Virus record (IMG/VR): IMGVR_UViG_3300032236_000985
Coordinates: 1 to 55,398 of that record
Source: a virus
Taxonomy: Duplodnaviria; Caudoviricetes
Length of the DNA stretch: 55,398 nt
Strand: one strand, 5' to 3'
Shown: in pieces, positions 305 to 37,178 of the stretch
Layout: each line of letters starts with the position of its first letter
How positions within the stretch are numbered: position 1 is the stretch's first letter
The notes under the pieces: model-generated
Database searches by the model: none
What the model saw: the letters and a program-made list of their open reading frames with translations, nothing else
Told to the model about the DNA's origin: nothing
Translations under genes and position numbers: made by a program

Positions 305-1339
305 TCAAAAAAATGAATCAATAGTATTAGTTTTAATGGAAGCTAAAGCTTCGGGTTCGTTTCCTATCCATCCATGACGTAACCACCATTTACATATTTC
401 CGGAGGTATTCCAACTATACCATGCATCTCGCCTAATAAAATTTCAGGATACATTTTTTTCCGTATATCGTAACACTCTTTCCAAAGACTTTCTTTATGC
501 GGAGCAATCAATTCAAATTCTCTAAGATATTTGAGTTGACGATAATGATGATATCCTCCTCCTCGTTTACCTTTGAAACAATTTCTAAAACTACAAATTT
601 TAGTTACGAATAGAGGGACATCGATTTCTTTATCCGGAAATTTATTTTCGTAAATCTCCTTTACCCACAGAATTTTATCATGGAGTAAGTCGGATTCATA
701 TTTCGTTATCTTCTTAGTCTTATCCCACTCATCAGCACGATCATCCATATAAATTATGTTGAACATACCGGAAGTTAAATTATCGCCTTCGTAAAAATTT
801 ATACTTTCATCCGAACGTAATTTTTTACTTAATCTTTCATTTTTATTAAATATCATTAATATTTCGTTAAAAAGATCGCAAGCAAATCTACCGTATTCTG
901 GACAAACTCTTATAGACTTTTGAACATTATCATATACCTCTCTTTCCGTATCCCCAATTGCTATAGTATCGAACCACGAGGATACTGAATTTTCTGTATT
1001 ATTTACAAACCAATTTAACGTTTTCTTTGATCTTTCGTTATAACGCTGCCATTTTCTAGCCGTTCCGTAGACGATTCTATCGTTCCATTGATCAAAAAAC
1101 GAATTGACTTGATTAGAAGTAGGAAGTTTCATATCCCATTCTTCAAAAGCGAATATAGCCGTTAATTCGGAATAAAAATTACCCATAAGGAACGCTAAAA
1201 AAATACATTGGTCTTCCGACAAATTTCTTCTATTAGAATATTCCCAAAAAAACGATTGATGGATCGGAGGAACAAAATTCGCGTATTCTACGAATTTATT
1301 AGCTCTCCAATCCCCTCCTTTATCATTAGGTATAATCAT
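305..1339 (-). CDS. Amino acid:DNA transferase-like protein (aGPT-Pplase2/ADDT, HhH-glycosylase fold)
   Basis: YGRFACDLFNE resembles the family GR..F..E motif, followed by TKICSFRNCFKGKRGGGY. Lies between a TET/JBP gene and a P-loop kinase. Ends TIDSFF. Confidence 0.65.
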   Translation of the reverse strand: MIIPNDKGGDWRANKFVEYANFVPPIHQSFFWEYSNRRNLSEDQCIFLAFLMGNFYSELTAIFAFEEWDMKLPTSNQVNSFFDQWNDRIVYGTARKWQRYNERSKKTLNWFVNNTENSVSSWFDTIAIGDTEREVYDNVQKSIRVCPEYGRFACDLFNEILMIFNKNERLSKKLRSDESINFYEGDNLTSGMFNIIYMDDRADEWDKTKKITKYESDLLHDKILWVKEIYENKFPDKEIDVPLFVTKICSFRNCFKGKRGGGYHHYRQLKYLREFELIAPHKESLWKECYDIRKKMYPEILLGEMHGIVGIPPEICKWWLRHGWIGNEPEALASIKTNTIDSFF

Positions 1340-1344
1340 AATTA

Positions 1345-2694
1345 TTAAAAAAACGCATCTAAAGTAAATGATTTTTGAACGCTTTCTGGATGATACTTAA
1401 TTAGCGCATCCTTTCCTAATTCTTTCTCAAGAAAAGCATACCATTCATCAGAAGTCCACATACCAGGAGATGTTCCATTCCACATTGAACGCCATTCTGG
1501 ATGATCTTTATCAGTTCGCCTAGATTCAACAAAATTAAATCTAGCATCTTCGTATACTTTCTCACCAAGTTCTAGCATTTTTTCTCGAAAATAACAAACA
1601 ACAGAATAACGTTCTGCATCATCTTCCTCAAGAACAATAGGGGTATTTCCATGAATGCCGCCATGATTATTGATCAACAATAGATCGCCGGGACGAACAT
1701 TAACTGCAACCCTAAATTCCGGTAGAACTAGCATACCTCCAGAATATTTCTTACCATTTGTAAGAACAGATAAATTAGAAAACCCTTCATGCAAGTCACC
1801 GGCATCTCTATGCGCCGCAGTCCTAAATGATTTATTTACAGTAATAGTCGTAAATACTGTATCCGGTACATGAAATGCTTGGTCAATTTTTTCTATGCAA
1901 GATTTCTGAAAAGCCCATCGTCTAGGTAAAAGTTTAGAAAAAGCAGCAGATAGTTTTTGTAAAAACGGAAAAGCAAGAGCAAACTTCTCTGGATTCTTTT
2001 CAGTGTAGGAAGTTGCTCTACCATAAGGAATTCTTGGATATCTATCATACCAACCAGCAACTCCTGAATGTACTGCCCCAGCATAATTCGTATTAGAAAT
2101 ATATTTAGATTTTACCAGTTCAGCTTCTACCTCTTGTTCCGAGAAGGTTAATTTCTTAGTATTTTCGACCCAAACATCAAAATCAAACCCATCAGCTTTT
2201 ACTTTACTTGGTAACCAAACAAATCCTCTGGGAGAAGGGATATAGTTTGCATTCGCATAAGTTTCGTAAATATTTGCAACATTGTCTTCATTAAACAAAT
2301 TACCATAAGGGTTTGAAAAATAATCAAGAATAGACATTTGTAAATCAGATACCCAATCCCTATCAGAATCCGTTTCATTTCTAGGACCAGCTGCTAACCC
2401 TCTGTTAAAAGAGATAGAAGCTGCCCCTTTCAATCCTTCTAAGGCATTGAGTTGTTCATCTTCGGTGAAGAAGTTCTTTCGTAGAATAAAAATCACTGTA
2501 TCTTCATCAATACCTTTTGGACAGGTTGTACAATCAGTATCGTCGCAGTCGTTCCTCTCTATAAGACCGCAAGAAGGAGGTCCGAAAAAGTTACAATCTT
2601 CGTCAATAATCGTATCAAAATGACTTTCGTCTAAAAATTGTCCAAGTAAATATTCGCAATTTAATTTTTTATCAGCAACAATTGTTCTAACCAT
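1345..2694 (-). CDS. TET/JBP-family 2-oxoglutarate/Fe(II) dioxygenase (5-methylpyrimidine oxidase)
   Basis: FTTITVNKSFRTAAHRDAGD (HxD), IHGNT (distal His), RYSVVCYFRE (2OG-binding Arg). Ends TLDAFF. Confidence 0.88.
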   Translation of the reverse strand: MVRTIVADKKLNCEYLLGQFLDESHFDTIIDEDCNFFGPPSCGLIERNDCDDTDCTTCPKGIDEDTVIFILRKNFFTEDEQLNALEGLKGAASISFNRGLAAGPRNETDSDRDWVSDLQMSILDYFSNPYGNLFNEDNVANIYETYANANYIPSPRGFVWLPSKVKADGFDFDVWVENTKKLTFSEQEVEAELVKSKYISNTNYAGAVHSGVAGWYDRYPRIPYGRATSYTEKNPEKFALAFPFLQKLSAAFSKLLPRRWAFQKSCIEKIDQAFHVPDTVFTTITVNKSFRTAAHRDAGDLHEGFSNLSVLTNGKKYSGGMLVLPEFRVAVNVRPGDLLLINNHGGIHGNTPIVLEEDDAERYSVVCYFREKMLELGEKVYEDARFNFVESRRTDKDHPEWRSMWNGTSPGMWTSDEWYAFLEKELGKDALIKYHPESVQKSFTLDAFF

Positions 2695-3976: not shown

Positions 3977-5478
3977 TGGCTGATATTTTACTTGAAAAAG
4001 CTAACGAGACATACATAAAAATAAACGCTGAGGAATACATCCTCAGGGAATTACAAGACAAATTCAGTTTTTACGCTGATGGATACAAATTCAATCCTAA
4101 GTTCAGGGCCAAACTTTGGAATGGTAAAATCATTCTTCTTAGAATTGTATCTAGAAACATAGGACTGATTTATACAGGATTATTGTTACAAGTTATTAGT
4201 TATTTCAAGAAATCAGGATATACTTTTGAAATTGATGAAAGTTTAAAATACAAAGACGTTCCGTCAGAAGATTCGTTAAAAGAATACCTTAAAGAATTGA
4301 AACCTGCATCGAAAGGCCAACTTCTTACTCCAAGAAACTATCAAGAAAAAGGGTTTATCGACGCAATACAAAGAAAACGTCAATTACTTCTTTCAGTAAC
4401 AGCATCTGGCAAGAGTCTTATAATCTATAGTATATTAAGATACTTGTTAGATCAAGATAAAAAAGGATTGATCATTGTACCAAATGTAACATTGGAACAT
4501 CAATTATACAACGACTTCGATGATTATTCTTCTATAAACCAATGGGATGTTGCTGAAAATATCCATAAAATCTATTCTGGGCAAGAAAAAATAACTGACA
4601 AACCTTTGTCAATATCAACTTGGCAAAGTTTGATGAACATCGGATCGACTGCATTTTTCGAACAATATGATTTCGTATTAATTGATGAAGCGCATGGAAT
4701 AAAAGGAAAAGAATTAACCAAGATTTTAGAAAAATGTGTAAATTGCGATTACAGAATAGGCTTGACTGGAACAACAGATAACTGTAAAGCAAACATCAAT
4801 ACAATCATTGGATTAACCGGAGAAATCAACAGATTAAACACAACTACTGAATTGGTTGATAAAGGAGAAATTTCCAATTTCGATATTAAATGTTTAGTCC
4901 TAAAATATGACAATGAAACTTGTAATCTTCTTAAAAAAGCAAAATATCAAGAAGAACTGTCATATTTCGTAACAAATAATAAAAGAAACGCTTTTATAAA
5001 AAATCTAGCCATTTCAACAAAAACAAATACCATTGTTTTATTCGAATACGTGGAAAAACATGGAAAAGTCTTGTATGATTTGATAAGAAATTCTAAAAGA
5101 TTAGAAGATGGTAGAAAAGTGTTTTTCATTCATGGAGGAATTGAAGGCGAAGAAAGAGAAAAGATTAGACAACTTCTTGAAAAAGAAGATAATGCAATCT
5201 TGATTGCTTCTGTTAAAATTATGGGAACTGGAACTTCAATAAAAAATCTTCATAATATAATTTTCGCAGTTAATGGTAAATCATCCATAAGAATTCTTCA
5301 ATCAATAGGAAGATCGTTAAGACTACACCATACCAAAGAAAAAGCCACTATATATGATATAGTCGATGACGTTTCCATAAAAAACCATCAAAATTTCTTG
5401 TTAAAACACTTTATAGAAAGAGTAAAAATTTATAACAAAGAAAGTTTTAATTACAAAATAACTAAAATTGACATTTAA
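3976..5478 (+). CDS. uvsW: SF2 RNA-DNA/DNA helicase UvsW
   Basis: TASGKS, DEAH, GLTGT, QSIGR; 500 aa. Confidence 0.95.
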   Translation: MADILLEKANETYIKINAEEYILRELQDKFSFYADGYKFNPKFRAKLWNGKIILLRIVSRNIGLIYTGLLLQVISYFKKSGYTFEIDESLKYKDVPSEDSLKEYLKELKPASKGQLLTPRNYQEKGFIDAIQRKRQLLLSVTASGKSLIIYSILRYLLDQDKKGLIIVPNVTLEHQLYNDFDDYSSINQWDVAENIHKIYSGQEKITDKPLSISTWQSLMNIGSTAFFEQYDFVLIDEAHGIKGKELTKILEKCVNCDYRIGLTGTTDNCKANINTIIGLTGEINRLNTTTELVDKGEISNFDIKCLVLKYDNETCNLLKKAKYQEELSYFVTNNKRNAFIKNLAISTKTNTIVLFEYVEKHGKVLYDLIRNSKRLEDGRKVFFIHGGIEGEEREKIRQLLEKEDNAILIASVKIMGTGTSIKNLHNIIFAVNGKSSIRILQSIGRSLRLHHTKEKATIYDIVDDVSIKNHQNFLLKHFIERVKIYNKESFNYKITKIDI

Positions 5479-6010: not shown

Positions 6011-6553
6011 ATGAAAGTAGTTGTAAATTACATTGATAACGAAGAGTTTACGAAGCATTTAATAGAACATAAAAATAAAGTCTTGGAACATAAAGCGAAA
6101 GGGCTTCCAAAGCCCAGAGCATCCGACTACATCGGTGATTGTTTTCTTAAAATTGCTAACAATTTAGCAAAACGTCCGAACTTTTATCAATATACATTTC
6201 GCGAAGAAATGGTCTCAGATGCAATAGAAAATTGTATCATGTATTTCGAAAATTTCGATCCAGCTAAATCAAACAAACCTTTTGCGTATTTTACTAAAAT
6301 TTGTTGGTACGCATTTGTCCGTCGAATTGCTAAAGAAAAGAAACAGCAATATATCAAATATAAAGCAACCGAAAGTTTTGGCGTTTTAGGCGAAGATGAG
6401 CTTGAGGATTTAGATGATGCTACAAGAGCGCAGATACAGATATATGATAATATGTATGAATTCATTTCTGCATATGAAGAAAAAAATATTGTAAAGAAAG
6501 AACAACCACCAAAAGAAACCCCAAAAGGATTAGAGAATTTTTTTGATGAGTAA
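6011..6553 (+). CDS. 55: Late transcription sigma factor gp55
   Basis: NYIDN, YIGDCFLKIA, RPNF..YTFREEM, FAYFT.IC.YAF.RRI.KEKKQ; C-tail GLENFFDE. Confidence 0.95.
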   Translation: MKVVVNYIDNEEFTKHLIEHKNKVLEHKAKGLPKPRASDYIGDCFLKIANNLAKRPNFYQYTFREEMVSDAIENCIMYFENFDPAKSNKPFAYFTKICWYAFVRRIAKEKKQQYIKYKATESFGVLGEDELEDLDDATRAQIQIYDNMYEFISAYEEKNIVKKEQPPKETPKGLENFFDE

Positions 6554-9933: not shown

Positions 9934-11230
9934 TATAATTGTTGAATTGGAATCCGATAATAGCAGACTCTTTAAAGAGTCTGTTATCATTAGGGAGATG
10001 GAAGCTAATAATACTGTATTTTTCGAAGGAATACGGTTAGCTTGTGATAATCTTATTACCTTTGGAGTTAGTGGAAAAACTGTACCGAAAACTGCAGTAA
10101 ATAATTCTTTAGATTGTTTGGATTGCGACTCTTTTTACGTTGCAATTAAAGATTTGATTGAAAGAAAATCTACCGGAAACGATGCAAAGAATCTTCTTGA
10201 TTTTTTAGTTATGAATTCAACTCCTCATATGTGGGAAAATTGGTATCTTAGAATTCTATTAAAGGATTTGAGGTGCGGCGTTGATGTTAAAACAATAAAC
10301 AAATGCGCTAAGAAAGTTAATCGACCTGAATTTTCTGTTCCGGTATTTTCTTGTCAACTTGCTAATAATTCAGTAGATCATCAAAACAAATTGATTGGTG
10401 AAAAAATTATAGAATGTAAGTTAGATGGTGCCAGAGTTATTTCTATTGTATATCCAGACGGTAGGGTTGATCAATTTTCTCGTAACGGTAAAGAACTTTT
10501 AAATTTTGATGTTATACGAGACCAATTAAGTAAAACGGGATTAGATGATCCAATTGTATTGGATGGCGAAGTAATGAGCGAATCTTTCCAGGATTTGATG
10601 AAACAAATCCGTAGAAAAGAAAACGTCCAAACAAATGATTCTGTTCTTCATGTGTTTGATATTATTCCATTAGAATATTTTTCAAAAGGTATTTGTAATA
10701 TACCTCAATCAGAAAGAAGCCAACTATTACAAATATGGTATGCAGTTAATAAAGAATATTTACATAATGTTCAAATATTAGATCAAGAAATGGTTGACTT
10801 AGATACTGATATAGGCTTAAATAGGTATAAGGAAATAAATAGATTAGCAATTGAAGGCGGGTATGAGGGTATAATGATAAAAGACCCTAATGCGCCTTAT
10901 GAAAACAAAAGGTCAAATTCTTGGTTAAAATTAAAACCTTTTATAACAGTTGATCTTGAGATTGTAGAGTTACAAGAAGGCGAAGATAAGTATGTCGGAA
11001 TGCTTGGTGCCTTTATTTGTAGAGGATTTGAAGGCGATAAAGAAATTTTAGTAAACGTTGGATCTGGATTCTCTGATAGGCAAAGAGAAGAGTATTGGGA
11101 TTTATCCGTTGTTGGTCGTATTGTTGAGATAAAAGCAGACGCAATAACACAGAATCAAAATGGAACATATTCTCTAAGATTTCCAGTTTTCATGCGTTTT
11201 AGAGGATTTGAAACTGGTGAAAAAATTTAA
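9917..11230 (+). CDS. 30: ATP-dependent DNA ligase
   Basis: KLDGAR, LDGE, EGIMIK, WLKLK, SLRFPVF. Confidence 0.93.
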   Translation: MRNPADIIVELESDNSRLFKESVIIREMEANNTVFFEGIRLACDNLITFGVSGKTVPKTAVNNSLDCLDCDSFYVAIKDLIERKSTGNDAKNLLDFLVMNSTPHMWENWYLRILLKDLRCGVDVKTINKCAKKVNRPEFSVPVFSCQLANNSVDHQNKLIGEKIIECKLDGARVISIVYPDGRVDQFSRNGKELLNFDVIRDQLSKTGLDDPIVLDGEVMSESFQDLMKQIRRKENVQTNDSVLHVFDIIPLEYFSKGICNIPQSERSQLLQIWYAVNKEYLHNVQILDQEMVDLDTDIGLNRYKEINRLAIEGGYEGIMIKDPNAPYENKRSNSWLKLKPFITVDLEIVELQEGEDKYVGMLGAFICRGFEGDKEILVNVGSGFSDRQREEYWDLSVVGRIVEIKADAITQNQNGTYSLRFPVFMRFRGFETGEKI

Positions 11231-11248
11231 ATAACATGGATTAAATAT

Positions 11249-12325
11249 ATGTGGACTAAAGATGATTGTATAAACGCAATCAGGGATTTAGCGGATCAAT
11301 TCCCTGATGCTGTGATAACTAGGAATTTTTTTAGAAACAATTCAGATTGTTCTGAATACTGGTGGTCTAAATATTTTGGCACTTTTTCAGAATTTAAAAA
11401 ATATTCTGGACTTGATAGAACCAGAGATCAAACTAAGCTTCTTGGACAAGTAGCTAAACACGCTTCTAAAGATACCGCTAGAGAATTTAATAAAGAAAAA
11501 GCCGAATACGAAGGAAAGTATTTGCGCCCAGATTCAAAAAGATTCCAAACAATTGTTACTATATCTGATACGCACGATATTAGTTTTGATCCGTTTACTA
11601 AACGAGTTTATTTGGATACATTAAAGCGTATTCAACCAGAAGTTATTGTATTTGGCGGAGACCATTTTGATCTTCCTGAATTTAGTAAATATTTCAACGA
11701 TCCCAGAAGTTTTAATGTAATTGAACGTATCAATTCCGTGCATGATTTTTTACGAGATATTAGGGAAATTGTTCCTGACGCAGAATTTAATTGGATTTCT
11801 GCAAACCACGAAATGCGTTTACTAAAGCATTTATCAGAAGCTAGTCCTAATATGATGGTACTATTATCTGATCTACATGGATTTACTATCTCTAAATTAT
11901 TAGGTCTTGATGAATTTGAGATTAACTATATTTCAAGAGAAGATTTAGGCGTATTTAATGAATCTGATTTTAAAAAAGAACTTGGTAAAAATTATCTAGT
12001 TAAATTTGATTCCGTAATGTTCCACCATTATCCAGAAGGTAAACATTATGGTATACCAGGTATGAATGGCCATCACCATAAACATAAAAGCGATTCCCTA
12101 CATAATTTAGCTTTTGGATCGTATGAATGGCATCAATTAGGCGCTGGACATATCAGAAGGGCAAATTATTGCGATGCGCAAAAATGGTCTACGGGATTCA
12201 TGATTAGTCATCATGATATATATAATAAGACTACCGTTTTCGAATACGTAGATACAACAAGAGATTTTGCTGTTGTTGGAGGAAAATGGTATCAAAGAAC
12301 TGATGAAGAAATTTATAAAGTATAA
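11249..12325 (+). CDS. Calcineurin-like metallophosphoesterase with N-terminal helical (HTH-like) module
   Basis: SDTH, GGDHFD, ANHE, FHH, GHHH. N-terminal WTKDDCI...YFGTFSEFKKYSGL resembles homing-endonuclease-associated repeats. Confidence 0.75.
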   Translation: MWTKDDCINAIRDLADQFPDAVITRNFFRNNSDCSEYWWSKYFGTFSEFKKYSGLDRTRDQTKLLGQVAKHASKDTAREFNKEKAEYEGKYLRPDSKRFQTIVTISDTHDISFDPFTKRVYLDTLKRIQPEVIVFGGDHFDLPEFSKYFNDPRSFNVIERINSVHDFLRDIREIVPDAEFNWISANHEMRLLKHLSEASPNMMVLLSDLHGFTISKLLGLDEFEINYISREDLGVFNESDFKKELGKNYLVKFDSVMFHHYPEGKHYGIPGMNGHHHKHKSDSLHNLAFGSYEWHQLGAGHIRRANYCDAQKWSTGFMISHHDIYNKTTVFEYVDTTRDFAVVGGKWYQRTDEEIYKV

Positions 12326-12342: not shown

Positions 12343-13140
12343 ATGCAAATTCAAATTTCTAGAGAAGAACTAGCCCAGAAGAAGTTGTTTATTGGTATGC
12401 CTACTTATGGTGGTATGATGACCACTCTAACGGCAAAGTCATTGATTGATCTTAACTCTCTAATGGCGCAATATGGCGTTGAGGTTAAGTTTAGTTTCCT
12501 AATGAATGAAAGTCTTATTCAAAGAGCGAGAAATTATATCACAGACGAATTCCTTAATCGTAGCGATTGCACGCACTTAATGTTTATTGATGCGGATATC
12601 GTATTCAATCCACAAGACATTATCGCTATGCTTGCGCTAGACAAGGAAATTGTTGGTGGCCCTTATCCGAAGAAGAGTCTTGATTGGAATCAGCTTAATA
12701 AGGCAATCAAGAAGAATCCAGAACTACCCCCTTCCGAATATGAAAAGTTGACTGGTTCAATTGTATTCAATCCAGTTGGCGGTACAACAAAGTTCAGTAT
12801 TCAAGAACCTCTTGAAATCATGGATCTTGGTACTGGTTTTATGCTGATTAGACGTGACGTGCTAGAAAAGTATCAAGCAGCATATCCTGAAAAGATGTAT
12901 AAGCCAGATCACGTTGGTCAAGCGCATTTTGACGGTTCCAGAGAAATCTGCGCTTTCTTTGACTGCGTAATTGATCCAGATTCTAAGCGTTATCTATCTG
13001 AAGATTATTTCTTCACTCAACAGTGTAGAAAGATTGGTATTAAGACTTGGCTTGCTCCTTGGATTAATCTTGGACATATGGGTTCTTATTTGTTCCAAGG
13101 TTCTCTACCCCATGTTGCCACTCATATTGGCGAACTCTAA
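12343..13140 (+). CDS. GT-A fold glycosyltransferase-like protein
   Basis: ESLIQRARN, HLMFIDADI (DxD), GTGFMLI, YLSEDYFF. Confidence 0.7.
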   Translation: MQIQISREELAQKKLFIGMPTYGGMMTTLTAKSLIDLNSLMAQYGVEVKFSFLMNESLIQRARNYITDEFLNRSDCTHLMFIDADIVFNPQDIIAMLALDKEIVGGPYPKKSLDWNQLNKAIKKNPELPPSEYEKLTGSIVFNPVGGTTKFSIQEPLEIMDLGTGFMLIRRDVLEKYQAAYPEKMYKPDHVGQAHFDGSREICAFFDCVIDPDSKRYLSEDYFFTQQCRKIGIKTWLAPWINLGHMGSYLFQGSLPHVATHIGEL

Positions 13141-13451
13141 TGGTTAAAGAGAAATTTTCTCATTACTATAAAAAAGTACCTGGAGAATACATTGATGTAT
13201 ATCGTGTTCTCCAGTTATTTGAAGTAACTGATCCTTGTATACAACACGCTATAAAGAAACTATTGGTTGGCGGAAAGCGTGGAGTAAAGGATGTACAAAA
13301 AGATATCAAAGAAGCCATCGTTTCATTGGAGCGATGGCAAGAAATGAGGGAAGAAGAAAAACTTGAAGAAGAATTTCAAAAAGAGTTTGAAAAAGCATGG
13401 GAAACTATGATGTTGGATGACGAGATTTTCGATGAAAACTCGATTGACTAA
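13140..13451 (+). CDS. Small phage protein (DUF3310-like)
   Basis: HY...IDVY...HAIKKLL..GKRG.KD...DIKEA pattern. Confidence 0.5.
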   Translation: MVKEKFSHYYKKVPGEYIDVYRVLQLFEVTDPCIQHAIKKLLVGGKRGVKDVQKDIKEAIVSLERWQEMREEEKLEEEFQKEFEKAWETMMLDDEIFDENSID

Positions 13452-13500: not shown

Positions 13501-14181
13501 ATGAAAATATCCGAAAGAACTTTACAAATACTGAAAAATTTCTCTACTATTAATCCTAGTATTGCTCTTAAAGAAGGAAATGCTATTGCAACAGTAGCGC
13601 ATAATAGGAATATTATAGTAGATGCTAAAATTGAAGAAACTATTCCAAAGGATTTTTGTATATATGATTTGAATAATTTTCTAAGTCTTCTGAGTTTGTT
13701 TAAAGACGGTGCTGAGCTTGAATTTGATGATGATCACGTATTGATTGTTGGTATGGATGGACGTAGTAAAGTTAAGTACAGGACTGCTAGTCCGAATACT
13801 ATTGTTGCTGCGCCTGATAAGAGACCAACTCTTCCATTTGTTGATGTTACTTTTAATCTTACTGCAAAAGACTTTACTTGGTTAATACGAACTGCTAGTG
13901 TACTTGGTTCTCCAAATTTTGCTATCGAAAGCGATGGCTCTAAAGTAACATTAAAAACTTTTGATTTATTAGATGATTCTGCACATACCAATACTTTAAC
14001 GCTTGATACTATTGATCCAGAAGGACTTTCGTATACGCTTATTTTTAAGACTGAAAATTTAAAGATTATTCCAAGCGAATATGTTGTTGAAATTTGTTCA
14101 AAGGGTCTTGCTAAATTCACAGATAACAATAATGAATTGATTTATTACGTCAGTATTGAAACTGCTTCTGTTTACAATTAA
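13501..14181 (+). CDS. 45: Sliding clamp gp45
   Basis: MKIS..T..ILKNFSTINPSI, FCIYDLNNFL. Confidence 0.95.
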   Translation: MKISERTLQILKNFSTINPSIALKEGNAIATVAHNRNIIVDAKIEETIPKDFCIYDLNNFLSLLSLFKDGAELEFDDDHVLIVGMDGRSKVKYRTASPNTIVAAPDKRPTLPFVDVTFNLTAKDFTWLIRTASVLGSPNFAIESDGSKVTLKTFDLLDDSAHTNTLTLDTIDPEGLSYTLIFKTENLKIIPSEYVVEICSKGLAKFTDNNNELIYYVSIETASVYN

Positions 14182-14510: not shown

Positions 14511-15452
14511 ATGATTGATATTAGCGAATTTGCTTGGGAAGAGAAGTATCGACCAAAATCGGTAGAAGAGTGTATTCTTCCTGAAAGTACAAAAAATCTT
14601 TTCAAAACTTATGTTGATAATAGTAACATACCTAATTTATTGTTGGCTGGTCAACATGGTAGCGGAAAAACCACTTCTGCTCTTGCGATGTGTAAAGAGA
14701 TAGGTTGTGATTATTTATTCATTAACGGTAGTTCCGAAAATGGTATTGATATATTCCGTAATAAAATTACGAATTATGCATCATCTATGTCTTTATCAGG
14801 AGGAAAGAAGGTAATTATTATTGATGAAGCAGATAGATTATCTCCTAATGCTTTCGATGCATTAAAAGCTGGTACAGAAGCATTTCATATGAATTGTACT
14901 TTTATCATGACCAGTAATCATAGGAACAGAATTCCTGCTCCTATTCTTTCTAGATTTACTGAAGTGGAATTTACAATTTCTAAAAATGAAAAGTTACCGC
15001 TTATCACTAAGTTTTTTAAGCGTATTTGTACGATTCTTGAAAAAGAAAATATTGAATATGATAAGGAAGTTCTTGCAGTATTGATAAATAAGTTCTTTCC
15101 TGATTATAGGAAAACTCTTGTTGAATTACAAAAATATTCTATTAATGGTAAAATCGATTCAGGTATCCTTTCGCAAGTAGGCGATATACAATTAAGAGAT
15201 TTGATTAAATACTTAAAGGATAAAGATTACACAAAGACCAGGGCTTGGGTAGTATCTAATATAGACACAGACCCAAATACCATCTATAGAAAGATTTATG
15301 ACGCATTATATGATTTTGTTAAGCCATCATCAATCCCTAATATTATTTTGATTATGGCAAGGTATCAATACCAGACGAGTTTTGTTATTGATCCTGAGAT
15401 TCAATTACTTTCGTTTCTTACTGAAGTGATGTTAGAAGGAGAATTTCTGTGA
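14511..15452 (+). CDS. 44: Clamp loader ATPase gp44
   Basis: WEEKYRP, GQHGSGKTT, IIIDEAD, SRF. Confidence 0.95.
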   Translation: MIDISEFAWEEKYRPKSVEECILPESTKNLFKTYVDNSNIPNLLLAGQHGSGKTTSALAMCKEIGCDYLFINGSSENGIDIFRNKITNYASSMSLSGGKKVIIIDEADRLSPNAFDALKAGTEAFHMNCTFIMTSNHRNRIPAPILSRFTEVEFTISKNEKLPLITKFFKRICTILEKENIEYDKEVLAVLINKFFPDYRKTLVELQKYSINGKIDSGILSQVGDIQLRDLIKYLKDKDYTKTRAWVVSNIDTDPNTIYRKIYDALYDFVKPSSIPNIILIMARYQYQTSFVIDPEIQLLSFLTEVMLEGEFL

Positions 15453-15847
15453 GTTTGGATTTATTTAAGGAAATAATTCCTTCGATTTTACAAAAGAAGA
15501 ATTATGTCCTGACAAACGAAACAGAAAAAGATTATGTCCCCTTCATTATAAATAAGGCGTTATCGCAACATATGGATTGTTTGTATCACGCAAACATGAT
15601 GAATTTAAACGGACATTTAGACAAAAAATTACAATATGATTATTTGTTTCATTCGGTTAGGGGATATAAAAGACCCTATCAAAAGTGGTTAAAGAATGAA
15701 AATTCAGGAGAATTGAACACAATTATGGAATACTATAATTGTTCTTCTGAAAAAGCAAAAACAATTTTATCAGTTTTAACGCAAGAACAAGTTAAAATTC
15801 TTGAAAAAAGACTAGATAAAGGTGGAAATTCTAAAACTACTAAATAG
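15449..15847 (+). CDS. 62: Clamp loader subunit gp62
   Basis: YVPFIINKALS, AN.MN, QYDY, KGG; GTG start overlapping the gp44 stop. Confidence 0.9.
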   Translation: MSLDLFKEIIPSILQKKNYVLTNETEKDYVPFIINKALSQHMDCLYHANMMNLNGHLDKKLQYDYLFHSVRGYKRPYQKWLKNENSGELNTIMEYYNCSSEKAKTILSVLTQEQVKILEKRLDKGGNSKTTK

Positions 15848-16408: not shown

Positions 16409-16594
16409 ATGAACAAAAAATCCGAAAAGATTGTTAAAGTAAAAAGTATTTTCAATAACGATTACTATTATTCCAGTCCATCCTTTCCTTCAAAAGAAAT
16501 TGATGGTCAGATGTTTATTGGCGTTAAGAAAAATAAAAACGATATTGAAACCTTTTTTATGAAGAAAGACAATCTTGAAATTTGTAGAGATTGA
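16409..16594 (+). CDS. Small hypothetical protein
   Basis: ATG 16409 with GGAG SD; ...KEIDGQMFIGV... Confidence 0.55.
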   Translation: MNKKSEKIVKVKSIFNNDYYYSSPSFPSKEIDGQMFIGVKKNKNDIETFFMKKDNLEICRD

Positions 16595-16595
16595 A

Positions 16596-17027
16596 ATGAA
16601 ACCTAAACTAATTGATTTTTATATGGATGTTGCTAGAAGAACTTCTCAACTATCGTATGCAGAAAAATTGAAAGTAGGCGCAATCCTGGTAAAGAATGAT
16701 AACATAGTTTCATTTTCTTGGAATGGTACTCCTAGAGGGTGGGATAATGTTTGCGAAGATAAGATTTATATTGATTCTGGTGAATACTCTTTAAAAACTA
16801 AACCTTGCGTTACTCACGCAGAAGAAGCATTGTTAATGAAGATTGCGGCTTCTAATGAATCGGCTGAAGGTTCAACTTTATTCTGTACTCATTCTTGTTG
16901 TATGAGTTGCGCTAAATTAATATATGGTGCAAAGATTAAAGAGTTTTATTATGCCAATGAATATAGAAGTAGAGAAGGAATAGAATTCCTTGAAAAGTGT
17001 GGAATAAAGGTTTTCAAGATCGGTTAA
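16596..17027 (+). CDS. cd: dCMP deaminase
   Basis: KVGAIL, WNGTPRG, HAE, CMSCAKLI. Confidence 0.88.
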   Translation: MKPKLIDFYMDVARRTSQLSYAEKLKVGAILVKNDNIVSFSWNGTPRGWDNVCEDKIYIDSGEYSLKTKPCVTHAEEALLMKIAASNESAEGSTLFCTHSCCMSCAKLIYGAKIKEFYYANEYRSREGIEFLEKCGIKVFKIG

Positions 17028-17065
17028 TAAATAATACTTTCACGTTGTTAATTAGGGAGAATGCT

Positions 17066-17425
17066 ATGACAGAAAGTAGTTGGGGGTATCATTTAATTCT
17101 TGATGTAAAAGGTTGTGATCTAGTAAAATCTAAAGATCCAATCTATATTGCCGATTTCGTAAAAGAACTTGTTAACCGTATTGATATGGTTCCTTATGGC
17201 GAACCGCAAGTGATCCATTTTGGCGAAGGTGAATTAACTGGTTGGACTGTTTTACAATTCATCCAAACTTCAAACATCATTGCCCACTTTATGGACCATA
17301 ATGGTGATTTGTATTTCGATGTTTTTTCTTGTAAAAATTTCGATAAGCAGATTGTTTTAGATATGTTAGCGGAGTATTTCTCTCCCGAAAACGTTAAACA
17401 TGAATTTTTGATTAGACAAGCATGA
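17066..17425 (+). CDS. speD: Pyruvoyl-dependent S-adenosylmethionine decarboxylase-family proenzyme
   Basis: WGYHLILD, QFIQTSNIIAHF (self-cleavage Ser), DVFSCK. Confidence 0.8.
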   Translation: MTESSWGYHLILDVKGCDLVKSKDPIYIADFVKELVNRIDMVPYGEPQVIHFGEGELTGWTVLQFIQTSNIIAHFMDHNGDLYFDVFSCKNFDKQIVLDMLAEYFSPENVKHEFLIRQA

Positions 17426-17759: not shown

Positions 17760-20321
17760 ATGAGTGATGATTTTTATCTGAGCGCCAAAGTTTATGGCGA
17801 CAACATTTTGTATCGCGGATGGAGAAACGGAAAGAAGATTAGTTCTAAAATTCCGTATTCTCCCTCTATTTTCATTCCAACAAATGAAGAAACAAAATAC
17901 AAAACTCTGTACAACGAACCTCTGAAGAAGATTAAGCCAGGTTCTATTAAAAAGACTAGAGAATATGTGAAGAAGTATGAGTCTGTAGAGAATTTCAAAA
18001 TCTACGGAAATACTAAATTTGAGTATTGTCTTATATCCGATCTTTTCCCAGATACCATCAACTGGGATATTAAAAAGATCAGAATAGGGATTGTGGATAT
18101 CGAAGTAAATTCAGATCCAGAAACTGGAGGATTTTCTAAACCGCATGATCCATTCCAGCCTATTATTTCTATTGCATATAAAATTCTTGGCGAAAACAAG
18201 ACTTATCTTTTAGGATATGATGATTTCGATCCTGCTGAAAATGTAGTGTATATTAAATGCAGAGACGAATATGATCTTTCAAAGAAATTTATTGATGTTT
18301 GGAGTCTAGATTATCCAGATGTTATTTCTGGTTGGAATAGCGATAATTTCGACTTAACCTATATGATCAATAGATTCAATAAGATCATTGGCGAAAAGGA
18401 AACGAGGAGAATGTCTCCTTGGGGAATTATTACAAATAGAGTTGTAAAAAGATACAATCCAAAATTTAACAGATTTGAGGAAGATAATTTCTATAATATC
18501 TATGGGGTTGCTTCGCTTGATTATCTTGAAGTATTCAAAAAGTATCATCCTGATGGAAAATCCCAAGAGCAATATAAGTTAGACTTTATTGCAGAAACTC
18601 AGATTGGCCAGAGAAAGGTTGAGTATGAAGGAACTCTGCATCAGCTTTATACTAGAGATAAACAAAAGTTTTACGAATATAACATTCAAGATGTTAATCT
18701 GATTGAACAGTTAGATAATAAATTTAATCTATTTTATCTCGTATTGGCACTTGCGTTTTATACTAAGACAAATTTCGAAGATCCATATCATCAAACCAGA
18801 TTGGGTGATGCTCTTTGTTATAATAACTTAAAAGCAAAGAATATTCAGGTTCCTAATTTTAACGATAATGAGGCTTTGGAATATGCTGGAGGATTTGTAA
18901 AGAAACCTTTACTTGGATTCTATAAATGGCCAGCAACTGTTGACGCAACAAGCCTATATCCTTCTGTAATTAATGGATTCAATATTAGTCCCGAGACTAT
19001 TGTTAATCCTAAAGATTATACGGATAATATGCGTAGAATATTATCACAAGGATTATCTGTTGATTCGATTTTGAATAAACAAGTTGATCTAACGGGACTT
19101 GTTGAAGATAAAGTTTGTTTGGCTCCAAATGGTCAATTCTTTAGGACGGATATCAGAGGGTTTATTCCTGACATCGTTGAAGACCTCTTCAATAAAAGAA
19201 GAGAATATAAAAAGACAATGTTGGATTATGAAAAAGACCTTGAAGTAGCTAAAAAGAATGGAACAGATACGAAGGAATTATTGAACAATATTGCAAAATA
19301 TAATGCGTTACAAACAGCAACTAAGTTGGTTGCTAACTCAGTATATGGAGCGTTGGGTAGTAAGTATTTCAGATTCTATGATTCTAAGCTAGCAGAAGCA
19401 ATTACTTTGTCTGGACAACTAGCGAATAAATGGACAGCTAAGAATTTAAATGATTTCTTTAATACGTTATTGAAATCTGATAAGGATTATATTCTGTTTA
19501 TGGATACCGATTCTTGCGGAATTTATATGGGTGAATTGGTAGATAAATTTATTCCAAAAGAAAAGACGAGAGAAGAAATAGTACGAATTCTTTATAGAAT
19601 GATTACTGAAAAGATTCAGCCAAAGATCGATGATTTCTGTTCTGAACTTGGTACGCTACTAAACGTCTATAAGAATACTATTTCTTACAAATTGGAAAAG
19701 ATTTGTTCTTCTGGTATCTTTGTCGCTAAGAAGAGATACGCTCTAAACGTATTTGCTAATGAAGGCGTATTTTACAACGAACCTAAGATCAAGGTAACGG
19801 GGTTAGAAATTGTTAAATCTTCAACCCCTGCTATTGTAAGAGATGCCTTGAAGAATTGTATTAAAATTATTCTGGACGGTACTGAAGACGATTTAAAAGA
19901 ATACTTACTTGAGTTTAAATCTACGTTTAACAGTATGCCAATTGAGAAAATATCTTTTCCAAGAGGCGTAAAGGGTATGGACAAATATTATAGTTCTTCC
20001 TTTATATATGGCGATAAAACCCCAATTCATGTGCGAGGAAGTTTATTATTTAACCATTATCTTGAAGAAAAAGGATTACACGCTACTTACGAGCAGATTA
20101 AGGAATCCGATAAGATAAAATATTGTTATCTTAAACTTCCTAATCCAATTAGAGAAGATGTTATCTCTTTTCCTGAAAAACTACCAAAAGAATTTGGTTT
20201 AGATCCATATATCGATTATGATACAATGTGGAATAAAACATTTGTCGAACCTATCAGTTCAGTAACTGAACTCATTGGTTGGGAACTTGAAAAACGTAAT
20301 AAAATAGATGATTTCTTTTAA
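17760..20321 (+). CDS. 43: Family B DNA polymerase gp43
   Basis: DIE, GWN...FD, YNIQDV, DATSLYPS, K...NS.YG, DTDS, KKRY; C-tail KIDDFF. Confidence 0.97.
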   Translation: MSDDFYLSAKVYGDNILYRGWRNGKKISSKIPYSPSIFIPTNEETKYKTLYNEPLKKIKPGSIKKTREYVKKYESVENFKIYGNTKFEYCLISDLFPDTINWDIKKIRIGIVDIEVNSDPETGGFSKPHDPFQPIISIAYKILGENKTYLLGYDDFDPAENVVYIKCRDEYDLSKKFIDVWSLDYPDVISGWNSDNFDLTYMINRFNKIIGEKETRRMSPWGIITNRVVKRYNPKFNRFEEDNFYNIYGVASLDYLEVFKKYHPDGKSQEQYKLDFIAETQIGQRKVEYEGTLHQLYTRDKQKFYEYNIQDVNLIEQLDNKFNLFYLVLALAFYTKTNFEDPYHQTRLGDALCYNNLKAKNIQVPNFNDNEALEYAGGFVKKPLLGFYKWPATVDATSLYPSVINGFNISPETIVNPKDYTDNMRRILSQGLSVDSILNKQVDLTGLVEDKVCLAPNGQFFRTDIRGFIPDIVEDLFNKRREYKKTMLDYEKDLEVAKKNGTDTKELLNNIAKYNALQTATKLVANSVYGALGSKYFRFYDSKLAEAITLSGQLANKWTAKNLNDFFNTLLKSDKDYILFMDTDSCGIYMGELVDKFIPKEKTREEIVRILYRMITEKIQPKIDDFCSELGTLLNVYKNTISYKLEKICSSGIFVAKKRYALNVFANEGVFYNEPKIKVTGLEIVKSSTPAIVRDALKNCIKIILDGTEDDLKEYLLEFKSTFNSMPIEKISFPRGVKGMDKYYSSSFIYGDKTPIHVRGSLLFNHYLEEKGLHATYEQIKESDKIKYCYLKLPNPIREDVISFPEKLPKEFGLDPYIDYDTMWNKTFVEPISSVTELIGWELEKRNKIDDFF

Positions 20322-22181: not shown

Positions 22182-23558
22182 GTGAGAATTGAACATGTTA
22201 TTTTGAAATCTTTGATCTTTAATGAAGATTATACAAGAAAAGTACTGCCTTTTTTGAAAGAAGACTATTTTGGCGATAGAGTTGAGCGATTGGTATTTAA
22301 TGAGATTGATTCTTACGTATCGAAATACAACTCTACTCCAACATATGAATCTTTAGTTATTGAAGTTAATAATAAAAAAATAACTGATGATGAGTATAGA
22401 GAATCAATCGAATTATTAAATGAGTTTAATGATCATAAATCAGAAACAAGTAAAGAAGATTGGTTGATTACTGAAACTGAAAAGTTTTGTCAAGATAGAG
22501 CCATTCTTAATGGCGTCAGAGAAGCAATTACCATCCTTGATGGTAAAAGTAAAACTCATGACAAGGGAGCGATTCCTGATATCTTGACTAAAGCTTTATC
22601 AGTTAGTTTTGATAGTAATATCGGTCACGATTATATTGATGACTTTGAATCTAGGTATGATTTCTATCACAAACAAGAAGAAAAGATTCCATTTGATTTA
22701 GATTATCTTAATAAGATAACTAAGGGAGGACTTCCGAAGAAGAGTCTTAACATTATTCTTGCGGGTCCAGGGGTTGGTAAGAGTCTTTTGATGTGTCACC
22801 ATTCTGCTACTTGTTTAATGCAGGGACGTAATGTTTTATACATTACTATGGAAATGGCAGAAGAAAGAATTGCAGAAAGAATTGATGCTAATCTATTAAA
22901 CGTCACCGTTGATGATTTACAGAAACTTGGGAAAGATGATTATTCGAAACGAGTTTCCAAATTAAAGACTGGTAAAATTGGTAAGTTAATTATAAAGGAA
23001 TATCCAACAGCTTCTGCAAGCGTTAACCATTTCAGAGCATTATTAAATGAACTTAATCTGAAAAAGAACTTTAGACCAGAAATTCTAGTAATTGATTATA
23101 TGAATATCTGTGCTTCTGCTAGGTTGAAGATGGGCGCAACGGTTAATTCTTATGCGTTTGTTAAAAGTATTGCAGAAGAATTAAGAGGATTAGCTGTAGA
23201 GTTTAATGTACCAATCCTTACTGCTTCTCAGTTAACCCGAAGCGGAGCGGCAAGTTCTGATCCCGGTATGGATGATGTTTCTGAATCTTTTGGCGTTGCA
23301 GCAACTGCTGATATGATGTTTGCTCTTATTTCTACTGAAGAACTTGAACAACTTAACCAGATAATGATTAAGCAAATTAAGAATAGATATTATGATCCGA
23401 CTAAGAATAAGCGATTTGTTATTGGCGTCGATAGATCTAAAATGAAACTTTATGATGCCGAAGCTTCTGCTCAACATGGTATTGTAGATTCTGGACAACC
23501 AGAAATGGATAATAAACAAAAGTTCAATAAGAAATCATTTGACGAATTCAAGTTCTAG
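22182..23558 (+). CDS. 41: Replicative helicase gp41
   Basis: AGPGVGKS, YITMEMAEE, IKEYPT, IDY, SESFG, KNRY. Confidence 0.96.
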   Translation: MRIEHVILKSLIFNEDYTRKVLPFLKEDYFGDRVERLVFNEIDSYVSKYNSTPTYESLVIEVNNKKITDDEYRESIELLNEFNDHKSETSKEDWLITETEKFCQDRAILNGVREAITILDGKSKTHDKGAIPDILTKALSVSFDSNIGHDYIDDFESRYDFYHKQEEKIPFDLDYLNKITKGGLPKKSLNIILAGPGVGKSLLMCHHSATCLMQGRNVLYITMEMAEERIAERIDANLLNVTVDDLQKLGKDDYSKRVSKLKTGKIGKLIIKEYPTASASVNHFRALLNELNLKKNFRPEILVIDYMNICASARLKMGATVNSYAFVKSIAEELRGLAVEFNVPILTASQLTRSGAASSDPGMDDVSESFGVAATADMMFALISTEELEQLNQIMIKQIKNRYYDPTKNKRFVIGVDRSKMKLYDAEASAQHGIVDSGQPEMDNKQKFNKKSFDEFKF

Positions 23559-23573: not shown

Positions 23574-23990
23574 ATGAAAATAGATTTGAAAATTATTGAA
23601 AATTTGAAAATTCTCACAAGGACGTCAACTCATCCGTCGGTATGGGTTGCGTCCTGTCTTGTTCATAGGAATAAAATAATTTCCTATGGCATTAATTGTA
23701 TGAAATCGCATCCTTATCAAAAAAAGTACGGTAGGAATGAAGAGGCCATATACTTTCACGCTGAAACCTTGGCAATATATACTGCAGACAAAAAACTTGG
23801 ATTCGATAAGTTTGAGAATTCAATCCTTTATGTTTGTAGATTAAAATATGAATCCACCGAGAAACTATCTTTGGTGAATGGAATGGCAAAGCCTTGCGAT
23901 GGCTGCATGCGTTGTATACAAGATTATCGCATTAAATCTGTGATATATACGATGGATGAACAAGATAATTATGGAGTTATGGTGATATGA
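23574..23990 (+). CDS. Zn-dependent cytidine deaminase-superfamily protein
   Basis: FHAE...AKPCDGC. Confidence 0.78.
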   Translation: MKIDLKIIENLKILTRTSTHPSVWVASCLVHRNKIISYGINCMKSHPYQKKYGRNEEAIYFHAETLAIYTADKKLGFDKFENSILYVCRLKYESTEKLSLVNGMAKPCDGCMRCIQDYRIKSVIYTMDEQDNYGVMVI

Positions 23991-24724: not shown

Positions 24725-25094
24725 ATTAGAAGGCGAAATTAAAAAGGTAACTTATAAAAAGAATAAGATGATTGTTGAAGGTGACTTGACAGTAACTGAT
24801 ACATATCACTCATTTGATGAATTGTACGCTCACAGAATTATGCTTTTCATCGCCGTTATGAAAAATAATAAAGAACTTTCTTGGCGTTCAAGGCAACATA
24901 GTGACGGAAGTTCTTTTGATGATTGGTTTATTGCTGGAATGCGTTTACCTACTGGTGATGTCACTTATCATATTCCTGATAGATTTTGGGGTATGCTAGA
25001 TGATATTACTACTGAAGAAAAGTCTCCAGATTGGGACGGACATACCGCTGATGATGTTGTTATCAGATTGAATAATTGGGTACATACGCTATGA
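24714..25094 (+). CDS. Conserved phage protein with WDGH motif
   Basis: GTG 24714 with GGAG SD; YHSFDELYAHR, WRSRQHSDG, TYH, WDGH. Confidence 0.6.
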   Translation: MKCELEGEIKKVTYKKNKMIVEGDLTVTDTYHSFDELYAHRIMLFIAVMKNNKELSWRSRQHSDGSSFDDWFIAGMRLPTGDVTYHIPDRFWGMLDDITTEEKSPDWDGHTADDVVIRLNNWVHTL

Positions 25095-25837
25095 AAATTT
25101 TATACTTCATTTTCTCTTGGAGAGGGCAATTCGATAACGCTGTATTACTAGAACAGGCTCTTCTACCTTTTGGTAATGTTGTAGTTATCAATTCAGATGA
25201 TTCATATGAACTAGATGACTGGGTTAACATTGGTAATGATTGTTACTTTTCTGATCAATTTAAGAAAGCGTTAGAAATAGCTTCTAAGGATGAATATGAC
25301 GTATTCTGTCACATTCAAGCAGATGCGTCTTGTTCTGATATTGCACCAATTATTGAATCTGCTAAGTCTTCTTTTGAAAAGTATAATTGGGGAGTTTATG
25401 CTCCTAATGTTGATGATACTTTTTATATTCCAGAAAGAACTGATGTATTACCTCTTGAGGATGGATTAAAGGTTGTTGCAACTACAGATAATACATTCTG
25501 GTTTATTCATAAGGATATGATTGATGATATGATTAATAACCTTTCTCTTATGAAAGATAATCAACTTGGTTGGGGATGGGATTTATTGATCTGTGCCTTT
25601 GCACATAAGAAGCAAAGGAAAGTTATCAGAGATTATAATTACACGATTGATCATCCTGCTTCCACAGGATATAAGAAAGAACAGGCTGAGCAAGAGATGC
25701 AAGACATGTTCGCAAAGTGTCCAAATGATATTAAAGAAATAATCTATTACATAAAGATGCAGCCTAAGTCTCTTGCTAAGTATTATGGCAAACAAGATGA
25801 TATCATCACTTATGATACTGCGAGAGGTTTATTTTGA
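25091..25837 (+). CDS. Putative glycosyltransferase (GT-A-like)
   Basis: HIQADA, GVYAP, GWGWD; glycan-locus context. Confidence 0.5.
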   Translation: MKILYFIFSWRGQFDNAVLLEQALLPFGNVVVINSDDSYELDDWVNIGNDCYFSDQFKKALEIASKDEYDVFCHIQADASCSDIAPIIESAKSSFEKYNWGVYAPNVDDTFYIPERTDVLPLEDGLKVVATTDNTFWFIHKDMIDDMINNLSLMKDNQLGWGWDLLICAFAHKKQRKVIRDYNYTIDHPASTGYKKEQAEQEMQDMFAKCPNDIKEIIYYIKMQPKSLAKYYGKQDDIITYDTARGLF

Positions 25838-26691
25838 AAATTTGTTATCTTGATTTTTGGCCTGGATTTGATATTAAGTCTAACTGGTTCAATCTAGTCT
25901 TTAGGGAATATTTCGAGAACAAAGATTTGATTTTTTCAAACGATCCAACAGACGCAGACGTTATTGTTGCGTCTAGTTTTGGAAAAGAGCGTTTCAAGTA
26001 TAATGATTTAAAGGCAATTAAAATATTCTATACTGGAGAGAACGAAAGAGCGGAATTAGATTGGGCTGATTATTCTTTGAGTTTTGATTATGATACTCAT
26101 GGAGGAAGAAATCTAAGACTTGCTCATTGGTATTTGTACGTTAATTGGTGGAATGAACCTGATTTTAAACACGCACAGATATCACTAGATCAATTCAATC
26201 GTAAATGGGATCCAGAAGAACTTTGTAATAGACAAGGATTCTGTTCTATAATGATTGGAAATCCAGTACCCAATAGATTGCATGTTGCTAATATTGTAGA
26301 TTCCAATTTTGGACCAGTACACGCGTATGGTAAAGTTTTTGGTAATTATTATGATGGCGATAAAGTTAAACTGCTTGAGAATTATAAATTCAATATTTGT
26401 TTCGAGAATTCAATCACAGAAGGATATGTAACGGAGAAGTTACTTCAAGCAAAGGTTGCTGGATGTATTCCTATCTATTATGGACATTCTTCCTTTATGA
26501 AAGATTTTAATCCTTCTTGCGTTATAAATTATACCGATTTCGAAGACGATGCCGCTTTTATGACCGAAATGTATTCTCTTCAGAATAAAGATACTTTTAT
26601 CCTAAAAGCAAAGGAACCATTATTCCATAAGATGCCTAATCTAGATTTCTTGTATGAATTCTTGGATACGATTTTTAAAGGAAAGTTATGA
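25834..26691 (+). CDS. GT10 alpha-1,3/4-fucosyltransferase
   Basis: IFYTGEN and YKFNICFENSITEGYVTEKL..A..AGCIPIYYG (alpha-1,3-FucT motif). Confidence 0.9.
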   Translation: MKICYLDFWPGFDIKSNWFNLVFREYFENKDLIFSNDPTDADVIVASSFGKERFKYNDLKAIKIFYTGENERAELDWADYSLSFDYDTHGGRNLRLAHWYLYVNWWNEPDFKHAQISLDQFNRKWDPEELCNRQGFCSIMIGNPVPNRLHVANIVDSNFGPVHAYGKVFGNYYDGDKVKLLENYKFNICFENSITEGYVTEKLLQAKVAGCIPIYYGHSSFMKDFNPSCVINYTDFEDDAAFMTEMYSLQNKDTFILKAKEPLFHKMPNLDFLYEFLDTIFKGKL

Positions 26692-31724: not shown

Positions 31725-31735
31725 AGGTGAATATA

Positions 31736-32752: not shown

Positions 32753-32753
32753 T

Positions 32754-37167: not shown

Positions 37168-37170
37168 ATA

Positions 37171-37178
37171 GATAAATA
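37171..37178 (+). promoter_or_regulatory. Late promoter variant
   Basis: GATAAATA (NATAAATA) at the boundary between the glycan island and the virion-protein cluster. Confidence 0.5.

Follow-up and report, generated by a model that had tools for sequence, protein, structure and literature searches.

Polymerase-like C-terminal tails on two base-modifying enzymes of a T4-like phage suggest docking on the gp45 sliding clamp

The stretch of viral DNA considered here (IMG/VR record IMGVR_UViG_3300032236_000985, positions 1 to 55,398; hereafter the window) is a 55.4-kb portion of the genome of a T4-like myovirus, with a G+C content of 32.6%. At its left end, on the minus strand, lie the genes of two predicted base-modifying enzymes, a TET/JBP-type 5-methylpyrimidine dioxygenase (5mYOX) of 449 amino acids (aa) (1345-2694) and a 344-aa protein related to the amino-acid:DNA transferases (ADDT; 305-1339). 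Both proteins end in a short acidic-hydrophobic peptide of the class that closes the DNA polymerase of the same phage, gp43. The reading that we hold with good confidence is that this peptide is a portable gp45-binding motif, which would dock the dioxygenase and the ADDT-like enzyme on the sliding clamp gp45 (13501-14181, plus strand). Since the two enzymes end in the peptide by which the polymerase would hold the clamp, they probably modify the bases of phage DNA while bound to the clamp.

The dioxygenase ends in ...KSFTLDAFF* (candidate gp45-binding motif TLDAFF, 1348-1365, minus) and the ADDT-like protein in ...KTNTIDSFF*, with TIDSFF (308-325, minus) at its extreme C-terminus. The family-B polymerase gp43 (17760-20321, plus; PF00136 and PF03104; phrog_262, E 5e-266) closes with ...RNKIDDFF* (KIDDFF, 20301-20318, plus), and the late sigma factor gp55 (6011-6553, plus; phrog_234, E 5.9e-57) with ...KGLENFFDE* (GLENFFDE, 6527-6550, plus). 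The original prediction held that these four proteins share a tail of the [LI]-[DE]-x-F-F type and that no other plausible gene of the window ends in this way, and both statements are borne out by translation and by a ranking of open reading frames (ORFs). Among 75 greedy non-overlapping ORFs of at least 50 aa, D-x-F-F ends are found in only three (TET, ADDT-like and polymerase), and besides these three and gp55 none of the 75 has such an end. When the other 74 ORFs were ranked by the likeness of their C-terminus to that of gp43, the ADDT-like protein came first (score 21) and TET second (17), against a mean of 3.6 and a standard deviation of 5.4.

The tail is conserved among relatives of both enzymes, the point on which the original prediction had staked its own refutation. 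A search for TET homologues returned 2582 matches, and in the best 120 of them the strict motif, defined as [LIMV][DE]xF[FLIMYW] at most 3 residues from the C-terminal end, was present in 106 and a looser version in 114. In an alignment of 45 TET homologues, a conserved KYHPE block is followed by a linker of 5-11 residues with insertions and deletions and then by [ST]-L-[DE]-x-F-F, the two phenylalanines being conserved at 100%, the leucine at 76% and the linker positions at 10-40%. For T4 gp55 it has likewise been described that a divergent linker of variable length precedes the clamp-binding epitope (PMC2988020). As to the ADDT-like protein, whose fold ends in ...EPEA followed by a short linker, the tail occurs in 15/15 homologues with at least 62% identity and in 0/6 with 35-40% identity; the six distant homologues end at the last conserved block of the fold, which is complete in them. 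A profile search of 1.8 billion proteins found the strict motif in 3 of the best 150 representatives clustered at 50% identity. Because close homologues have the tail and distant ones lack it, these sequences mark the ADDT-like tail as a clade-specific add-on.

A wider survey covered 1149 clustered ORFs from 82 sources, namely 80 IMG/VR loci around TET relatives, one locus of phage DLP6 and the window. The strict motif was found in 130/203 ORFs of nine families as against 1/946 of all other ORFs, and the nine families are the polymerase (22/23), gp55 (5/15) and seven families of DNA-modifying enzymes. These are TET (57/82; 79/82 with the loose motif), ADDT (17/44; loose 37/44), a 213-aa GNAT (19/22), TAGT (5/6), GT-B (3/9; loose 9/9, the remaining GT-B proteins ending in ...LDDMFG or ...LEDLFG) and, as single ORFs, one GT4 and the ADDT-like protein of the window. 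From the frequency of the motif core, 9e-4 per residue position, approximately 4 C-terminal matches would be predicted in the 1149 ORFs and 131 were observed, a more than 30-fold enrichment. LF variants of the tail are found in a further, small TAGT cluster. In phage C48C1, a D12-class N6-adenine Dam methyltransferase (PF02086; locus L094, 3805-4689) ends in STLDAFFG while the adjoining polymerase ends in ATLEDFFG, and when this enzyme is counted the DNA-modifying families with a tail number eight.

The original prediction had also proposed to test whether the tail covaries with that of the cognate gp43, and across lineages it does, so that both of the comparisons named there turned out in favor of the prediction. 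In phage Cr30 the polymerase ends in DLSSLFD and a TAGT-like protein in DLSKLF; at locus L059 the polymerase ends in QVSLF and TAGT in SVSLF; in Kuttervirus PhiSH19 (L105) VNLLSMMGKKG of the polymerase is accompanied by VSLLGLLSKG in the kinase and VNLMTLLKR in ADDT; and in Vibrio phage D528 (L106) ARKLW of the polymerase is accompanied by TKKLW in the kinase, TRKLW in ADDT and TKRLW in a 5-hydroxymethyldeoxyuridine (5-hmdU) kinase helical-domain protein (PF18723). In a permutation test over eight lineages, the observed match of enzymes to their own polymerase was reached by 10/40320 permutations. Every ORF of seven other whole phage records was in addition ranked, without prior choice of enzymes, against the end of its own polymerase. 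A modification enzyme took first place in 4/7 of these genomes, and in a fifth genome ranks 2-3 were held by such enzymes. Specifically, ADDT, the kinase and the 5-hmdU-kinase helical-domain protein are at ranks 1, 2 and 4 of 205 ORFs in D528; TET and Dam at 1 and 2 of 180 in C48C1; the TAGT-like protein at 1 of 245 in Cr30; TAGT at 1 of 184 in G017; TET and TAGT at 2 and 3 of 861 raw ORFs in DLP6; TET and GT-B at 4-5 of 241 in G004; and the kinase is tied for third (score 12) in PhiSH19.

Within the clade whose tails end in FF, pairings with the polymerase of the same genome, compared with shuffled ones, gave p 0.003 for ADDT, p 0.018 for GT-B and 0.098 for GNAT, with TAGT and gp55 not significant; identical pairs were removed beforehand (e.g., 21 to 18), and kinship of the loci inflates such tests. 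Strict residue-by-residue covariation inside this clade was therefore set aside as weak, and the clear signal comes from the lineages with other tail classes.

It is the peptide, rather than the DNA that encodes it, on which selection acts. The tails use 8 different codons at the [LIM] position, GAA, GAG or GAT at the acidic position and TTC or TTT at the phenylalanine positions, and adjacent TET and GT-B genes with identical peptide tails have merely 18-23 of 33 nucleotides in common. Because identical peptides are written in different codons, the common tails cannot be put down to gene conversion or to a promoter, a terminator or another signal in the DNA.

The tail is also absent where no match to the clamp was found. 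Five phages (S-CBWM1, HTVC112P, P12024L, LysYB1 and Magpie) gave no match to the gp45 domain PF09116, and none of their homologues of TET or ADDT ends in the tail. A gp45 match is present in Cr30, DLP6, C48C1, Melnitz, G004 and D528, while those of G017 and PhiSH19 fall short of the cut-off. In one of the five, the Nonlabens siphovirus P12024L (L091), a DNA methyltransferase encoded beside TET (4472-5107) ends in ...SQQTLF. The motif that binds the bacterial beta-clamp is QxxLF, and the resemblance may mean that this methyltransferase works with the clamp of the host.

Several observations weigh against docking on gp45, or limit its reach. The first is a look-alike, as the PF12322 baseplate proteins end in GL[KN][DE]FF in C48C1 (115098-115805), G004 (111638-112393), Cr30, G017 and T4 (115811-116428), and a search by motif only would be fooled by them. 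The existence of this lineage-independent end means that the motif by itself is no proof, and it is covariation that separates the cases: the baseplate end stays the same whatever the polymerase tail, and the baseplate protein was consequently set aside as a clamp client, its end being regarded as fold-intrinsic. Regarding covariation itself, the enzymes of the eight-lineage test were picked with their tails already known, from a lineage sample that is small and partly hand-picked; the TET of Cr30 (ending in GATLF) falls outside the top 12 of 245 ORFs, as does the ADDT of PhiSH19 in its own genome; and in the FF clade the likeness of polymerase and TET tails within a genome is only modestly above that of shuffled pairs (5.22 vs 4.88 of 8, p 0.011). 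Besides, not every enzyme of the neighbourhood is equipped with a tail. The P-loop kinase lacks it (0/30 full-length relatives of approximately 180-200 aa from related loci), nor does the class-II glutamine amidotransferase PF13522 have an FF tail in this clade (0/53). A last group of objections comes from T4 alpha-glucosyltransferase (alpha-GT), the one modification enzyme for which gp45 binding has been measured. Its sequence ends in ...EQFDIITK, with no polymerase-like C-terminal tail, so its contact with gp45 is of another kind. Moreover, a 2026 study of T4 concluded that clamp binding is not the main determinant of the share of alpha and beta glucosylation (PMC13216743), and the functional weight of tethering may for this reason be modest. 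On balance, the original prediction of a replisome-tethered hypermodification is supported in part. It probably holds for the two enzymes, whose tails are missing from homologues in phages without a gp45 match, and does not extend to the whole pathway, since the kinase of this clade has no tail with which to ride the clamp.

The mechanism that we favor for the dioxygenase and the ADDT-like enzyme can be outlined as follows. The final residues of each, about six in number, an acidic-hydrophobic [ST]-[LI]-[DE]-x-F-F on a flexible linker and of the class of the gp43 and gp55 ends, would most likely fit into the hydrophobic pocket of trimeric gp45. With gp45 placed on phage DNA by its loader gp44/62, the docked enzymes would stay on that DNA and could move along it. 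Oxidation of the base, most likely of thymine to 5-hydroxymethyluracil (5-hmU), and the later transfer of an amino acid would in this manner be concentrated on clamp-bearing phage DNA, and the enzymes would bind gp45 and act on nascent DNA at or behind the fork.

Three other explanations of the tails have been considered. An improbable one is that they dock on a different hub of the replisome, e.g., gp32, the clamp loader or the polymerase, which would still couple modification to replication. The ends of gp41 (SF[DE]GFKF) and UvsX, likewise conserved and acidic-hydrophobic yet distinct in type, indicate that several docking codes coexist and lend this possibility some substance; nevertheless, the tails match those of gp43 and gp55, whose T4 counterparts bind gp45 by such ends, the window encodes both gp45 and its loader, and the homologues in the five phages without a gp45 match have no tail. 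Still less probable is that the tails bind gp45 mainly as competitors or regulators, for example in the timing of the switch from replication to gp55-dependent late transcription or in polymerase unloading, and not for catalysis. The gp45 trimer offers three sites, common to polymerase, ligase, gp55 and gp33, and clamp binding did not account for the glucosylation share of T4 alpha-GT, as this explanation would have it; the tail is, however, restricted to enzymes that modify DNA catalytically, with several chemistries among them, and is not one of small regulators, and the simpler reading would be a tether by which the local concentration on DNA is raised. Finally, it is very improbable that the tail plays no part in docking and is a product of the fold or of chance, as suggested by the PF12322 baseplate end and by the one unrelated ORF in 946 that fits the strict motif, given that it occurs behind a variable linker in seven DNA-modifying families, exceeds its expected frequency more than 30-fold, is missing from distant ADDT-like homologues with a complete fold and, unlike the baseplate end, shifts in class with the polymerase tail in Cr30, L059, PhiSH19 and D528.

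Docking on gp45 might also be read more broadly, and here we consider the chances to be even. The copy of the polymerase C-terminal peptide, tracking the lineage, would constitute a general recruitment code in gp45-encoding phages, with most of their post-replicative hypermodification enzymes hung on the clamp. Its clients would include the dioxygenase, the Dam methylase, the amino-acid transferase, glycosyltransferases and an acetyltransferase; Kuttervirus and Vibrio phages would add the 5-hmdU kinases of the thymidine pathway that has been studied by experiment. If such a code exists, the clamp would serve the phage as a mark of self, limiting modification to phage DNA that has just been made, and clamp clients could be predicted from the match between the end of an ORF and that of the polymerase.

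With regard to the modification genes themselves, the TET/JBP gene, the 344-aa ORF and a kinase fragment are closely packed at the left end of the window, all on the minus strand. The dioxygenase, first gene of this cassette, matches Tet_JBP (PF12851) at E 5.4e-24, with 84.7 bits vs a cut-off of 34.9, and phrog_24024 at E 2e-160; it possesses the HxD...H iron triad (H295-x-D297 and H348) and the 2-oxoglutarate-binding arginine (R362), which are invariant across 45 homologues. By sequence, the only match of TET to a solved structure is a marginal one to clavaminate synthase. The second protein, initially described as transferase-like, is indeed assigned to the transferases, and the label can be refined. 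Its match to PF18724 is below the gathering score (21.6 bits, cut-off 26.2, E 2e-4), while its family aligns with the bona fide ADDT family over 288 columns with an hhalign probability of 99.1% and E 1.9e-18, and members of the latter match PF18724 at E 1e-15 to 1e-23. On these profile comparisons the 344-aa protein is a divergent branch of ADDT; sequence searches found no solved structural relatives for either family. The third gene (1-321, minus) encodes 107 aa from the N-terminus of a P-loop kinase for nucleotides, of the 5-hmdU DNA kinase type (PF18751, 28.2 bits vs a cut-off of 27), whose C-terminus lies beyond the window, and the order ADDT then kinase recurs in relatives, e.g., L002. 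Because the family of the 344-aa protein aligns to bona fide ADDT, the cassette, judged by family membership and neighborhood, looks like one for thymidine-hypermodification chemistry, in which the base would be oxidized, phosphorylated and displaced with an amino acid. The substrate of the dioxygenase would most likely be thymine, converted to 5-hmU on DNA. No C5-methyltransferase was found among the 57/75 window ORFs scanned or among representatives of recurrent neighbor clusters, the window being part of a genome. The PF13522 amidotransferase adjoins TET in most related loci (53 loci, e.g., L024 3847-4536) and has a semi-conserved end of its own, V[DE][YL]Q..., and its gene is not part of the cassette of the window. 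At L059 the TET protein (9980-11371) carries the motif internally (GSIEEFE), followed by a cysteine-rich extension of 25 residues, at a locus where the polymerase and TAGT end in VSLF.

The replication, recombination and late genes of the window comprise UvsY, UvsW, gp55, gp46/47, ligase, gp45, DsbA, gp44/62, RegA, gp43, UvsX, gp41 and RNase H. The proposed docking partner gp45 matches PF09116 at E 2.4e-10 and phrog_223 at E 6e-67, and a profile built from 50 homologues matches the RB69 and T4 gp45 structures (1b77/1b8h, 1czd and 6drt) over the full length at E of about 1e-40. The clamp loader (14511-15847, plus) consists of gp44 (14511-15452) and gp62 (15449-15847), recognized by PF21328, PF00004 and PF16790. 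Two genes of the dCMP-deaminase type and an S-adenosylmethionine decarboxylase gene (16575-17425 and 23574-23990, plus) are also placed among the replication genes, and ThyX is encoded at 44204-44857. A 13-kb block (25076-38253, plus) is devoted to sugar-nucleotide and glycosyltransferase functions, namely GDP-mannose dehydratase, epimerases, two DegT aminotransferases, a split transketolase and transferases of the GT2, GT10 and GT-D-like types, and the tail is found on none of its genes.

The remaining top places of the polymerase-tail ranking in the window deserve a brief description. RNase H (51357-52196, plus), which ends in ...LLEVIDEF, is tied for third and is followed by UvsW, gp55 and gp41, so that the top seven comprise both modification enzymes, four proteins of replication, recombination or late transcription, and an unannotated ORF upstream of gp45. 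The latter, directly upstream (13140-13451, plus; 103 aa; phrog_2452, no Pfam match), ends in ...LDDEIFDENSID, and its homologue at L005 (99-356, minus), ending in ...KLEEFFLL, is the sole strict-motif match outside the nine families. The ORF may encode another client of the clamp or a factor resembling gp33. The family of the gp41 helicase (22182-23558, plus; 43 relatives) has its own conserved end, SF[DE]GFKF, which differs in class from the polymerase tail and may be another docking peptide. Small unannotated ORFs with ends of the lineage type were also noticed in PhiSH19 (29107-29316, 69 aa, ...NLL.MM.K.) and D528 (55591-55890, 99 aa, ...K[KR]LW).

The closest known systems are the clamp-binding motifs of T4 and RB69. 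As the original prediction had stated, T4 has tails of the SLDFLF type, its record giving ...ASLDFLFG at the end of gp43 and ...SLDFLYEAND at the end of gp55. It has been described that the tails of gp43, gp55 and gp33 bind gp45 and are interchangeable (PMC2988020), and that hydrophobic-acidic motifs bind a hydrophobic pocket on gp45 (PMC2988020, PMC7892883, PMC6212786). The tails of the window are similarly short hydrophobic and acidic peptides at the extreme C-terminus after a divergent linker, and in its gp55, like that of T4, acidic residues trail the motif. In T4 DNA ligase, for which a structure of the LDFLF peptide in the gp45 pocket and a Kd of about 10 uM are on record (PMC6212786), the motif is an internal loop, unlike the tails of the window. 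The consensus differs as well, being L-[DE]-x-F-F here vs L-D-F-L-F in the T4 system. Furthermore, while the T4 and RB69 clients are replication and transcription proteins, those proposed here are base-modifying enzymes (TET/5mYOX and ADDT, and in relatives TAGT, GT-B, GT4, GNAT and Dam), and the list of gp45 clients would thus be widened to at least eight families of this kind. Comparing the ends of ORFs with that of the polymerase would provide a cheap route to new clamp clients in uncultured phages.

A DNA-modifying enzyme on a phage clamp has a precedent in T4. The binding of alpha-GT to gp45 was reportedly described by Sommer et al. in 2004. Published work records that this enzyme co-purifies with gp45 (PMC13216743, PMC6024577), and the pull-down has been repeated (PMC13216743). 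The likeness is that the clamp of the phage itself holds a DNA-modifying enzyme that is proposed to act right after replication; the differences are that the fold of alpha-GT is unrelated to those of TET and ADDT, and that its substrate is 5-hydroxymethylcytosine made before replication. The TET and ADDT-like proteins of the window belong to other families, and neither homology nor a contact of the alpha-GT type was found for them. Alpha-GT is in this sense an earlier clamp-bound modifying enzyme of a phage. For polymerase-like tails on TET and its partner enzymes, a literature search that combined clamp or gp45 with TET/5mYOX, JBP or hypermodification, over openly accessible main texts, found no paper that describes them.

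Post-replicative hypermodification itself is well represented in the literature, by 5mYOX thymine dioxygenases (PMC13229309), TET and glycosyltransferase systems (PMC8256090) and the pathway of 5-hmdU kinase and amino-acid:DNA transferase (PMC11472151). The enzyme families and neighborhoods of these papers are those found here (TET, kinase, amino-acid transferase, GT and GNAT). Where their text speaks of a clamp, of gp45 or of a C-terminal feature, the clamps are of the ParB type or neighboring genes, and no polymerase-like tail is described; one subclass relies on a ParB activator instead. How such enzymes find phage DNA and cover it fully in time is an open question, and the rationale for post-replicative modification is called "a mystery" in a PNAS paper of 2026 (PMC13229309). 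A clamp tether would give a concrete answer in terms of local concentration, tracking on DNA and discrimination of phage from host DNA. In this context, the TET enzymes and glycosyltransferases of the published assays were His-tagged at the C-terminus (PMC8256090). A tag in that position would hide any tail present there.

A eukaryotic parallel to the proposed docking on gp45 is DNMT1, which is tethered to PCNA by a PIP box, so that there too a short peptide recruits a DNA-modifying enzyme to the replication clamp. In that case the motif is internal or N-terminal and the reaction is maintenance methylation, whereas here several enzymes belonging to a single hypermodification pathway copy the tail of the polymerase. 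Clamp-binding tails and phage hypermodification pathways were each known before, and what is new is the presence of polymerase-like, probably clamp-docking tails on base-modifying enzymes.

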